Shown here piece by piece: positions 54,001 through 64,000 of a DNA stretch of 64,000 nt. The position numbers are program-made. This stretch comes from a virus. Its lineage: Duplodnaviria > Heunggongvirae > Uroviricota > Caudoviricetes. Location of the stretch: IMG/VR virus record IMGVR_UViG_2718218100_000001. One strand, given 5' to 3'. Within the stretch, counting starts at the first letter, position 1; each line of letters opens with the position of its first letter.

Positions 54001-57000
54001 TCCATACGGCAAGGCGGGGATTTATCCGGCTGGGAAAACGACTGGGCTTTGAGCGAATGCCGGATGATGAGGATGGCTTCATGGTGTTCAGGATAGCGGT
54101 CTGACTGCTACAGTTTTCATCATTGTGTTTAAACCAACATTGTAATTCACATTCTGACCCTGCTCCGGCAGGGTTTTTTGTTATCCAGGGGGCCATTATG
54201 GGTGGAAGTAAAGGCGGTGGTGATACCAAAGTAAAACCAACAGCAGCGCAAATAGCACAGGAAGAAGTGGCCTGGAAAGGGTGGCAGGATTACAAAAATA
54301 TCCTCCGCCCGGCTGAAGATAACTTCATGGAAAAGGTCGATGACCTGAACAGTGAGCAGCAGTACGACAATATTGCTGGCACCACAAATCTGGGGTATCA
54401 GAAACAGTTTGGCGAAGCACGGAAGGAGCTTGCGGGTAATCTTGCTCAGTCCGGCGTTGACCCATCCAGTGGTCGTTTTAATGCGGTAATGAATGCGAAC
54501 CAGAGTGACCAGGTAACCGGGCAGATTGACACAACCACACGGGGGCAGGTATCGCAGGCAGATAAGTATGTTGCCGGGCTACAGGATGTTGCTGCTCTCG
54601 GTTCTGGTCAGAAGGCGGATGCGTTACAGAGTTTTAACTCTCTGGCAGACAGCAGTCTGGCAAAAGCTAAATCGGATGCACAGGCGGCGTTTACGAAACA
54701 GCAGGGGCGAGCCTCTCTTGTTGGCGCTGGTCTGGGTGCGGCAGGTGCATATGCGATGCATAAGGCTGGCGGTAGCGGAGGAAGTGGCGGTGCTAAAACA
54801 CCTGGCACCGGCGCTAATGCCATTCAGCATCAGGCTCAGAACTGGAGACTGTGATTATGGAGTACGGTAAATACGAAACACTTGCAAGATACGGTTATAC
54901 CGGAGCAGCCCGCCCTCAGGGGGACTGGCAGACATCCGCAGCGCTGACCCGCCAGCAATACGACGACTGGCGCACCAGATATTTACCCCGTGTAGCAAGG
55001 CTGGCTGACCTTGGGGAGAACAACAGTCTGATGAATGCACAGCTTGCACGGGTGGGAGGCCTTGCCACTTCCAGTCTCCGTACAGCGCAGATGGCGCAGG
55101 ATAACCAGATGGCGAGATACGGGGTAAACCGCCCGGATAATCCCGACAGTAATACGCTGGGGTTACGTAATGCCCTGGCAATTGCTGGCGCGAAAAATGG
55201 TATCCGTGAAGCCGAACAGGATCGCCAGATGAATATTCTGACGGGGGCTTCTGCACCGGCAAGACAGAAACTGAGTGTTGGCGGCCAACTGGTGGCAGCG
55301 TAAGGGGGCAATATGGGATACGGTTTACTGGATATTGCAAATCAGTCGCGGCGTGAGGCATTACAGGGAATAAGTGACGCAGACAGACGACGTGAAGAAA
55401 TTGAGGCTGCGAACAAACAGATGGCGGCGCAACAGAAAGCGCAGAACAAGCAGAATATCGGTACGGGCATTGGTACGGGGGTGGCTATTGGCGCATCCGT
55501 TGGTGGTCCTGTTGGTGCTGTTGCTGGAGCAGTAATTGGCGGCATTGCTGGTTCTTTGTTTTAAGGAGTGGTGAATGAGCGGATTTGCACAGGGGGTACT
55601 TGCCGGATTCAGCACCGTTGACCAGGCAATGACCCGTCGTAAGGAGCTTGGTCTGCGTGAAGCACAGCTTGCCCGGCAACAGAAAAATAACGAGCGCGAT
55701 TTTGAGTTTGCGCAGTCTCAGTTTGAACATAATAAAAACGTTGATCAGCGGAACTTTGATTACAGAGCCAAAGTTGACGACCGTAATTATGCACTGAAGG
55801 AAAGGGAGTTTAACGCTAACCAGAATTACCGGAATGCGTCGCTGGGGATGGAACAGCAACGACTCCAGTTGCAGAAATACAACCAGCGACGGCTTGAGTA
55901 TAACGATATGATTGCCCATAGCCAGCCACTAATGGAAGCGCTTGGAAAAGCAATTGAGGCTGGCGATCAGGAGGCTGCAACGCGTCTGTTCGGGCAGCTG
56001 CCAAAGGGACATCCATTAATTCTTATGTCAAACGAAGGCTATGCAGCGAAAGCGGGTCAGGCCGTGATCAACCTGCAAAAAATCTTTGGTGATAAGCCGG
56101 ACATGGCGATCGATTCGCTGAATACCCCGGAAAATCTCGATGTGCTTTCCGGCGTGTTTGCCCCGGAACTACAACAGCGTATTGGCATGCCTGATTCAAC
56201 CGGGGAAAAAACGATAAAAGAGGCCAGGATTGGCAGTATCGTACCAGCGCAGCAGGAAGGGTACGTACTTATTGGCCTTGATCTCACATACAGCGATGGC
56301 TCCACCGCGCATAAACCTGTAACAGAATACGGCAGTGCGCACCCTGATGATCAAACCGTGCTGGCGATACCCGTTGATAAGGCTATCGCTCAGGTCAGGG
56401 ATCGCAGCAAATTTGCAGAGATATCGAAAAATTATGGTTATTTTATGCCGAAGCAGCAGGGACTTTCTCTGAAAGAGCTTCAGAAGGGGGCCAGCAACGT
56501 AGCGGCGGACGCGATCAAGAATGGCGGTAATGCTCAGGCTGCGGTGGATGAATATTATGCTGCGACTGGTTCACAACCGCATCAACAGAAAATTCAGCAA
56601 CAAAAACTTCAGCAACAGGTTATCAACTGGGCGGGAGATGATCCTGATAAGCTGTCATTTGCCAGAAATGTAGCGGCCCGTCAGCCTGAAATGCTGGAAC
56701 CTCAGAATCAGAAATTGCTGGAGAACGGGTATGCGAATTTTCTCCGTATTCAAAAGGCCAGGGGGGAACAGGCCAGAGATGAAAGTGCTTCATCTGCATC
56801 TCAGTTTATCCGTGGACTGAAACAGAATTACGCCCAGTAATTCACGATATTCCATTAATACCATTTCCTGATGCCCGGCCATTGTGCCGGGTTTTTTTAT
56901 GGAGTCTGTATGGCCTATTCAGAGGAACAGCGTCCTGAGGCGCAACTCGGTAACCAGAATCGTAACAGCCTGAACATTCAGCAACCCGGCGAAACTGACA

Positions 57001-63000: not shown

Positions 63001-64000
63001 CCCGTCGCCGTGAGCTTATCCGTGAGGCTGGACTTGAAGAGAGTGGTGTGGTGGATGCCTGGCAGAACGCCTACCGTTACTACGTTCCCCTGAAAGGTCA
63101 GGATATTGACGGTGTGGTGTCACTGCCCCGTACAGGTAAGGGCTTCACTATCGGCGGACGTGAAAGCAGGCAGGCCATGGGGCGTGCATCCCGTGCACAG
63201 TCTCCGTCCACTCAGGCGATACAGGACCTGAGCGAATCGCTGATCCGCCATCGCAAAAACGAAGTGGGTAACGCCTTCCTGAAACTGGTACAGGATAATC
63301 CCGACAAGGATTACTGGCAGGTATTCACTGATGACAGACCGGATACCATGCGTGTGATTGCAGAGCGCAAGGACCAGGAAACTGGTGAAACCATTCGCGA
63401 AGTTGTCGAGCGTCCGGTGGCGATGGCAATGATGGCAGACCGGTACTTCACCACCAAAAAGAACGGCAAAACGTACTACATCAAACTCCATGACCCGCGC
63501 CTGATGCGTGCGATGAAGAATATGGGACCGGAAACCAGTAACGCCGTAATCCGCACGCTGGGGAAAGTTAACCGCTTCCTGGCAACGGTGAACACGTCGT
63601 ATAACCCGGAATTCCTGGTCAGTAACTTCATCCGTGACGTGCAGACGGCGGTGATGAACCTGAAGGCGGAGCAGGGAAGGAGCGACGGTAAACTGAAAGG
63701 GCTGGATAACTTATCCGCCCTGGCTGTGGTGAAAGACAGCCGTTCTGCCATGTCAGCCGTATACGCCAGTCTGCGTGGTAAAACCCTCACGGGAAAAGGT
63801 GCACAGTGGCAGAAGGTGTGGAAAGAGTTTGTTGAGGACGGAGGGAAAACCGGCTGGTTTAACATGGGTGACCTTGAAGGCCAGCAGAAGGAAATGGATC
63901 GCCTTGTCTCACTGGCGAAGGGGGGATGGAAAGGCCAGAGTATCGGTGCATGGAATTCGTTCCTTAACCTTGTCGAGGATGCCAACGGTGCGGTTGAAAA

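Follow-up and report, generated by a model that had tools for sequence, protein, structure and literature searches.

Shiga-toxin genes are carried chiefly by short-tailed Shiga toxin (Stx) phages, whose crossing of the cell envelope and survival of host defences are both poorly understood. The window analysed here, a 64,000-nt stretch of the viral record IMGVR_UViG_2718218100_000001, holds a tyrosine integrase gene, stx1a and an entire late region, and the gene for the Stx1a A subunit identifies it as an Stx1a prophage. The final gene of this prophage, located 3′ of the tail genes at the end of the late region, is a giant open reading frame (ORF) that makes up about 14% of the phage genome, and the question raised by the locus is what a protein of this size does for the phage. 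We consider it likely that the ORF encodes a giant 'polyvalent' ejected virion protein of the 933W/phi24B-type Stx podoviruses, whose central enzymes act in the host cytoplasm. Several unrelated enzymatic and LPD domains are found in this one polypeptide, which is encoded together with phage virion genes, and its phi24B orthologue, gp47, is an abundant component of the virion.

An earlier note, made from the sequence of the window alone, had described a frame that runs without a stop from position 56910 to the end of the window. This is correct: 2,363 stop-free codons follow the ATG at 56910, and the nearest in-frame stop upstream is at 56856-56858. The chance that a random frame stays open for this long is about (61/64)^2363, which makes such a frame essentially impossible. 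In a 100%-identical phage record, the frame stays open for another 431 codons past the window (the gene extends by 1,294 nt), giving a full protein of 2,794 amino acids (aa) that aligns to phrog_616 end to end. The ORFs of phi24B (gp47), 933W, VT2-Sakai and AU5Stx1 represent the same gene, with 96-100% nucleotide identity, the same position and the same LPD5, LPD1, MuF-C and LPD38 domains. We see no biological difference between gp47 and the ORF of the window; the phi24B preprint (10.64898/2026.04.10.717836) does not describe the two HExxH domains discussed below.

RefSeq places the start of the gene 13 codons earlier, at the ATG at 56871. Since this codon overlaps the first base of the stem of a terminator-like hairpin, and since the ATG at 56910 has a GGAG 5 nt to its 5′ side, the sequence makes 56910 the more plausible start. 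The hairpin and its T-run would correspond to the terminator that the earlier note had placed 5′ of the giant ORF. The 2,811 aa given for gp47 in the phi24B preprint correspond to a stop-to-stop reading (17 + 2,794), as confirmed by the 17-residue offset of the peptide coordinates in that work. The same preprint states the size of gp47 in a second way, as '>3,000 amino acids' (10.64898/2026.04.10.717836).

In purified phi24B virions, gp47 yielded 10,962 peptide-spectrum matches (PSMs), second after the capsid protein, and 422 peptides cover 93.6% of its sequence (10.64898/2026.04.10.717836). Peptides spanning both HExxH motifs were recovered, namely GNGPGALAHEWFHSLDNYFGR for the HEWFH region and HEIIHHAMEHVVTPAEYQTIIK for the HEIIHH region, and the copy number was estimated at 11-35 per virion, or 22.8 with the portal set to 12 (10.64898/2026.04.10.717836). 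The protein is not seen in the cryo-electron microscopy map of phi24B (10.64898/2026.04.10.717836). Through the published proteome of its orthologue, the giant protein is thus present in the virion without being part of the lattice. By the phi24B estimates, it amounts to several megadaltons per virion and brings along three predicted enzymes, two zinc peptidases and a ribonuclease (RNase).

The phi24B supplement gives slice counts per protein and a peptide sheet pooled over the gel slices. The counts for gp47 are highest in the top slice, with 62% of its PSMs from the gel coming from above the slice in which the portal peaks. In the lower slices the counts tail off in a way similar to other proteins; the preparation had been stored for six months. 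We read these per-protein slice counts as a gp47 that is mostly intact in the virion, with no evidence for specific processing there. Ejection of gp47 at infection is a proposal of the phi24B preprint (10.64898/2026.04.10.717836).

The domain map of the protein is given in Table 1. Four Pfam families match the full protein, all above their cutoffs: LPD5 (aa 1051-1200, E 9e-45), LPD1 (aa 1361-1440), MuF_C (aa 1750-1839) and LPD38 (aa 2477-2682, E 8e-49), the last of which is encoded past the window end. Together with two predicted zincins and the virion location of the orthologue, these support the earlier suggestion of a giant multi-domain virion protein with enzymatic domains. From the composition of the protein, 0.04 HExxH motifs would be expected by chance, and two are observed. 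Sub-segment scans with Pfam at E values up to 10 gave no model that covers one or the other HExxH region; the sole match, to M76, was at the level of the motif (E 0.12-0.18). Sequence searches of the Protein Data Bank (PDB) with the whole in-window protein, both zincin profiles and the C-terminal frame returned nothing meaningful, and PADLOC gave no match.

The first motif, HEWFH, is present as the earlier note had said (aa 1284-1288), although the coordinates given there, 60761-60775, were off by 2 nt and should read 60759-60773. Residues 1182-1437 match the NCBIfam family CLCA_X (NF041907) with an E value of 1.3e-44, the alignment taking in model positions 3-245 of 250. At 152.6 bits, the match stays under the curated cutoff of 260 for whole proteins, as the model represents a stand-alone protein of about 250 aa. 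A search with aa 1041-1445 yielded 1,532 homologues. In 44 aligned homologues with 39-67% identity, H1284, E1285, H1288 and D1291 are invariant, as are H1263, E1265 and D1362, and E1375 and E1382 are conserved in at least 90%. The AlphaFold model of the region is confident, with a predicted local distance difference test (pLDDT) score of 87.9 and a predicted template modelling score of 0.80. It shows the core fold expected of a zincin, i.e., an N-terminal helix, a three-stranded sheet, an active-site helix and a second, C-terminal helix, and the HEWFH motif lies within model helix 242-259. Conservation and model together confirm that HEWFH, taken in the earlier note for a zincin-type signature, sits in a real predicted zinc-peptidase domain (zincin-1); its catalysis is a prediction.

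Candidates for the third metal ligand of zincin-1 are D1291, D1362, E1375 and E1382. Since the helix that carries the two glutamates falls inside LPD1, LPD1 of Pfam is apparently no unit in its own right but the helical C-terminal portion of the peptidase domain. In Lenart 2013 (PMC3650047), CLCA_X is described as a zincin family that has the self-cleaving metalloprotease domain of animal CLCA proteins (CLCA_N) as its sister, occurs mostly in phages, prophages and plasmids, and is often part of proteins of more than 1,000 aa; the consensus is written there as HExxHxxxD, whereas the giant protein and its 44 homologues have HExxHxxD, with the aspartate one residue closer. A widespread phage-type clade of metallopeptidases has a conserved histidine where strand 2 ends, and an aspartate three residues after HExxH (PMC5512222), and zincin-1 agrees with this clade in both features.

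Zincin-1 also occurs without the giant protein. Stand-alone proteins of about 560 aa consist of the LPD5-zincin-LPD1 cassette alone and start with MxxIxDFGxxxxGAxK. Since this start motif is found at aa 904 of the phage protein, the cassette spans approximately aa 900-1445. Stand-alone genes of this type (e.g., L003:10001-11677 and L005:3611-5320) are situated in mobile islands, away from virion genes, and their products have no signal-peptide-like N-terminus. Among their neighbours are genes for Acb1 (anti-CBASS), an ImmA-like M78 peptidase, H-NS, MksE/DUF3584, AbiEii and NADAR, which hints at a role in defence or counter-defence. The existence of stand-alone forms that lack a signal peptide and are found in mobile islands rather than by virion genes argues that the cassette has a cytoplasmic function of its own, beyond trimming its giant carrier protein.

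The second HExxH domain (zincin-2), with the motif HEIIHH, is absent from the earlier note. An exhaustive search with aa 1445-1745 gave 428 cluster representatives, nearly all of them proteins of 1,000-6,000 aa, with the family consensus LRHExxxH(H/Y)GL. The family corresponds to the HExxxH clade of Iyer et al. 2017 (PMC5512222); the Stx-phage subgroup has lost one residue, so that HEIIHH fits either spacing. H1551, E1552, H1555 and E1607 (nt 61728-61730) do not vary across 34 diverse sequences. The model of zincin-2 has a pLDDT of 83.3 and the zincin order of elements; a Foldseek search with it against the PDB gave no significant match, and neither a Pfam model nor a related PDB sequence was found for the domain. 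The motif evidence for a zincin is therefore strong, and the fold evidence, which comes from the model, is moderate. Comparison of zincin-1 with zincin-2 revealed no specific relationship between the two. Both resemble MtfA, Pro-Pro endopeptidases, lethal factor, IrrE, CapP and Spartan, and both are unlike LAS, M23 and M15 peptidases.

One protein from Pectobacterium (P0017, 489 aa) was considered as a free-standing combination of zincin-2 and MuF-C and was dropped: an LPD1 fragment lies directly upstream in what is a decayed prophage, and the ORF was taken for a pseudogene piece. At this locus in Pectobacterium sp. S5 (L002:9573-11470), a 159-aa LPD1 fragment is followed by the 489-aa ORF, and the pair resembles what is left of a disrupted giant gene.

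The third predicted enzyme is MuF-C, which scores 64.4 bits in Pfam against a cutoff of 27.6. MuF-C is defined as a predicted RNase of the BECR fold with an active site made up of a histidine and a serine or threonine (PMC5512222). K1745, H1752, P1769, S1816 and Y1838 are invariant in 34 relatives, and the domain therefore looks catalytically competent as a predicted RNase. The phi24B preprint calls MuF-C a metallopeptidase and bases its proposal of peptidoglycan degradation on this assignment (10.64898/2026.04.10.717836). Judged by their sequences, the peptidase signatures reside outside MuF-C, and MuF-C is not one of the metallopeptidases.

The enzymes are flanked by terminal regions that behave differently from the centre. 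In 149 giant relatives, the N-terminal approximately 400 aa and the C-terminal 700-900 aa invariably occupy the extreme N- and C-terminus, respectively, and the LPD5-zincin-1-LPD1 and MuF-C blocks are variably present in between. On this reading, the relatives consist of a fixed N- and C-terminal frame with swappable central cargo. The C-terminal frame was found by tblastn in 355 phage records, and its carriers include Vibrio phages (41% identity), Bcep22-like podoviruses of Burkholderia and Ralstonia, the Bacillus phages Page and Pascal, and the Methanosarcina virus MetMV. The end of the N-terminal domain was detected by profile in giant proteins of Vibrio, Burkholderia, Ralstonia and Methanosarcina viruses. 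This part of the N-terminal domain holds a glycine zipper in which G413 is conserved in 88% of 75 relatives, G417 in 96% and G421 in 76%, and which is a candidate membrane-inserting element. A simple integral-membrane protein was rejected, as no 19-residue window reaches a Kyte-Doolittle score of 1.3 or more. The linker that follows (aa 441-895) has no domain matches in Pfam and is probably disordered.

The sample that pointed to zincin-2 as part of a universal core of these proteins was biased, having been selected through zincin-2. When giant proteins were picked solely by their C-terminal frame, zincin-2 was present in those of Vibrio D62 (E 2e-73) and MetMV (E 7e-15, motif HELTH) and was not found in that of Bacillus phage Pascal. 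The proteins of BcepIL02 and Cimandef gave no match to the zincin-2 profile and are suggestive at most. On these sequences, zincin-2 is common beside the C-terminal frame without being universal. Both BcepIL02 (L008, aa 3618) and Cimandef (L010, aa 3491) have a lone HExxH in the usual zincin-2 position, about 150 aa before the frame (VLLHEAFH and VLLHEMFH, respectively), which may belong to a divergent peptidase.

The 3,002-aa protein of MetMV (L007:2584-11592) matches the closing part of the N-terminal domain at E 3e-6 and the C-terminal region at E 1e-176. Since it carries zincin-2, with its HELTH motif in canonical form, as well as these two regions, the frame is, by sequence comparison, common to bacterial and archaeal viruses.

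A further feature of the giant protein is its lack of cysteine: none is found in 2,794 residues, versus a mean of 0.78% in ten other proteins of the window (P ~3e-10). The four proteins encoded directly upstream (872 aa combined) have no cysteine either, and the same is true of the giant proteins of BcepIL02 (4,667 aa), Cimandef (4,545 aa), Vibrio D62 (3,066 aa) and Pascal (1,672 aa); that of MetMV has three. Such a composition would fit the passage of an unfolded protein through the tail and the oxidising periplasm, but it is not proof of it.

The domain content, the invariant catalytic residues, the predicted zincin folds and the presence of the orthologue in virions come from this analysis or the cited data; from these we infer the following course of events. 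The giant protein would be packed in the T=9 head, accompanied by the small Cys-free products of the genes directly upstream, and, upon release of the tail needle, would be expelled unfolded through the tail. The N-terminal domain with its glycine zipper and the C-terminal frame would serve in packaging, membrane insertion and formation of a conduit, and the central enzymes (the predicted peptidases and the RNase) would act in the host cytoplasm within the first minutes of infection. For the two zincins, we take the following division of labour to be the likeliest. Because zincin-2 adjoins the C-terminal frame in many relatives whatever the cargo, it could cut the giant protein itself and free its modules, a role that we rate as possible but slightly short of probable. 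In the same way, since the cassette of zincin-1 is also found in mobile islands as a cytoplasmic gene that stands alone, it is conceivable, with nearly as much speaking for it as against it, that the cassette is a trans-acting protease effector directed against host (probably defence) proteins, alongside the RNase-like domain.

A more far-reaching version, which we regard as tentative and in its entirety rather unlikely, has the Cys-free 'frame-and-cargo' proteins as one family of giant ejected proteins in podoviruses of Proteobacteria and Firmicutes and in at least one archaeal (Methanosarcina) virus. In this family, the frame-adjacent zincin would cleave its own chain after ejection and release swappable counter-defence cargo, which in Stx phages would comprise a CLCA_X-type protease cassette that destroys specific host defence proteins and the BECR RNase. 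If true, the injection of about 20 copies of a multi-enzyme of about 300 kDa per virion would help explain the promiscuous lysogenisation by which stx is spread.

The best-surviving alternative is that the HExxH domains are structural or regulatory metal-binding modules that function in folding, encapsidation or control of their neighbours and are not proteases in practice. The virion RNA polymerase (vRNAP) of phage N4 may provide a precedent, as its C-terminal domain, which contains a conserved HExxH subdomain (C1), is needed for encapsidation as well as for allosteric regulation, and packaging takes place without processing (PMC13434306); the finding of gp47 mostly as a very large species in virions would agree with such a role. 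Yet in each family (44 and 34 diverse sequences, respectively) neither the general-base glutamate nor the metal ligands vary, zincin-1 occurs as a stand-alone cassette with nothing to encapsidate, and homology to the N4 domain is not demonstrable. We therefore consider a purely structural or regulatory role improbable.

A role in breaching the cell wall, as proposed for gp47 in the phi24B preprint (10.64898/2026.04.10.717836), has still less in its favour. In that proposal, the metallopeptidase degrades peptidoglycan so that the ejected conduit can cross the wall. Searches of the giant protein with Pfam, NCBIfam and PHROG revealed no lysozyme, lytic transglycosylase or LAS, M23, M15 or NlpC-P60 domain, and matches by fold were to protein endopeptidases. 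In a protein without a recognisable lysozyme or transglycosylase, some wall-breaching activity is still to be accounted for, and the N-terminal lytic transglycosylase domain of the related JC1 gp69 illustrates that such proteins can include wall-degrading modules. However, the preprint puts the peptidase in MuF-C, the predicted BECR-fold RNase. Because both HExxH domains resemble protein or peptide endopeptidases instead of cell-wall peptidases, and because the stand-alone zincin-1 cassettes look cytoplasmic, with no signal peptide and a setting among cytoplasmic defence and counter-defence genes, we hold peptidoglycan to be a quite unlikely target.

A DarB-like antirestriction protein, shielding the incoming DNA from type I restriction by methylation or helicase action, is suggested by the annotation 'DarB-like antirestriction' given to relatives in BcepIL02, Cimandef and JC1 that carry the C-terminal frame, but the frame is all that the Stx-phage protein has in common with them, Pfam and NCBIfam find no methyltransferase or helicase domain in it, and this very remote reading is effectively refuted at the domain level.

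Our preferred reading, an ejected polyvalent protein with enzymes for the host cytoplasm, can be compared with known systems. The phage-type polyvalent proteins of Iyer 2017 (PMC5512222) likewise combine a metallopeptidase with PBECR/MuF-C and LPD domains in a virion context. N4 gp50 (PMC13434306), the vRNAP, is similarly giant (3,500 aa), is housed in a T=9 podovirus head, is invisible in maps and is ejected with small ejection proteins, and it also has an N-terminal domain associated with the membrane and, in its C-terminal region, a subdomain with HExxH. It differs in having an RNA polymerase domain, a family for which Pfam and NCBIfam give no match in the giant protein, and in being present in four copies versus about 20 for gp47. 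The hhalign probabilities of 5% (gp50 aa 2100-2500) and 1% (aa 2450-3500) led us to reject homology, and we regard N4 vRNAP as an analogue and not a relative.

Close parallels outside the Stx phages are the Bcep22-like proteins JC1 gp69, BcepIL02 gp70 and Cimandef gp14, which are homologous in the end of the N-terminal domain and in the LPD38 C-terminal frame, are likewise encoded after the tail genes, were found by mass spectrometry to be virion-associated and lack cysteine. JC1 gp69 (4,515 aa) is a virion protein, and the portal, capsid and head-closure proteins of JC1 are homologous to those of 933W (PMC9144972). In place of two zincins and MuF-C, the proteins of this group, JC1 gp69 among them (PMC9144972), carry a lytic transglycosylase plus a methylase and helicase of the DarB type as their central cargo. 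Much of this was already known: the gene entered public records with the earliest 933W-type genomes, RefSeq annotates it by its LPD5 domain, the presence of its orthologue in the virion was published in 2026, and descriptions of the zincin families date from 2013 and 2017. What we add is a corrected and fuller domain map, with two metallopeptidases located and MuF-C excluded, the frame-and-cargo reading and the Cys-free signature; this is not a discovery.

Table 1. Coordinates of the giant ORF, its domains and signals, and other genes of the window
Feature	Position (nt)	Strand	Basis or remark
Tyrosine integrase	7662-8906		
Shiga toxin Stx1a A subunit	26861-27817		NCBIfam Shig_StxA_1a, 729 bits vs cutoff 718
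Four genes, orthologues of phi24B gp51, gp50, gp49 and gp48	54198-56840	+	
phi24B gp51 orthologue	54198-54854	+	
phi24B gp50 orthologue	54851-55303	+	
phi24B gp48 orthologue	55575-56840	+	421 aa
Terminator-like GC hairpin, then T-run	56873-56892	+	Between gp48 orthologue and giant ORF
Shine-Dalgarno sequence and start codon	56901-56912	+	GGAG 56901-56904, 5-nt spacer, ATG 56910-56912; read from sequence
Giant ORF, aa 1-2363 of 2,794	56910-64000	+	Orthologue of phi24B gp47 and AU5Stx1 gp85
N-terminal frame domain, aa 1-440	56910-58229	+	Family census and jackhmmer; extreme N-terminus in relatives
Glycine zipper EGAALGAAMGAPFGAVAGYRG, aa 406-425	58125-58184	+	Closes N-terminal domain; weak Pfam Gly-zipper matches
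Acidic Gln/Pro/Gly-rich low-complexity linker, aa 441-895	58230-59594	+	Composition profile
Accessory cassette, first part, aa 896-1200	59595-60509	+	Begins at IEDFGxxxxGAxK (aa 904); includes LPD5
Zincin-1 (CLCA_X-type, aa 1201-1360) and Pfam LPD1 (aa 1361-1440)	60510-61244	+	
Predicted active-site motif HEWFHSLD, aa 1284-1291	60759-60782	+	Conservation in 44 homologues
Zincin-2, aa 1465-1690	61302-61979	+	No Pfam model for family
Predicted active-site motif HEIIHH, aa 1551-1556	61560-61577	+	HEIIH, aa 1551-1555, nt 61560-61574
MuF-C domain, aa 1740-1850, predicted BECR-fold RNase (PBECR)	62127-62459	+	Pfam MuF_C
C-terminal frame, start (aa 1880-2794)	62547-64000	+	Always extreme C-terminus in relatives (jackhmmer)

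The earlier note had also placed a run of internal virion protein genes upstream of the giant ORF. This holds insofar as the phi24B orthologues gp48, gp50 and gp51 are found in virions; PHROGs assigns no function, all four upstream proteins belonging to PHROG families of unknown function. In phi24B, copy numbers per virion were estimated at about 30 for gp48, about 22 for gp51 and 36-40 for gp50, with their location in the map given as 'ND', and gp49 was represented by just 6 PSMs (10.64898/2026.04.10.717836). With 1,634 PSMs and a copy estimate comparable to the portal, gp48 is labelled 'Transcription factor?' in one sheet of the supplement (10.64898/2026.04.10.717836). Its orthologue in the window falls into no family of Pfam or NCBIfam and probably is a major protein of the virion interior, and the four gene products are probably internal or ejection proteins that are co-packaged with the giant protein.

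The 7.1-kb stretch of the giant ORF is 100% identical to the Stx1-converting phages AU5Stx1, AU6Stx1 and SH2026Stx1 and at least 90% identical to 186 phage records, all of them short-tailed 933W/phi24B-type Stx phages (genus Traversvirus). An IS66-family insertion sequence is situated at 49160-51493 of the window on the minus strand, between the tail-needle gene and the downstream accessory genes, and encodes TnpC (512 aa), TnpB (115 aa) and TnpA (133 aa). The element is missing from the same position in AU5Stx1, which is otherwise identical across the giant ORF.

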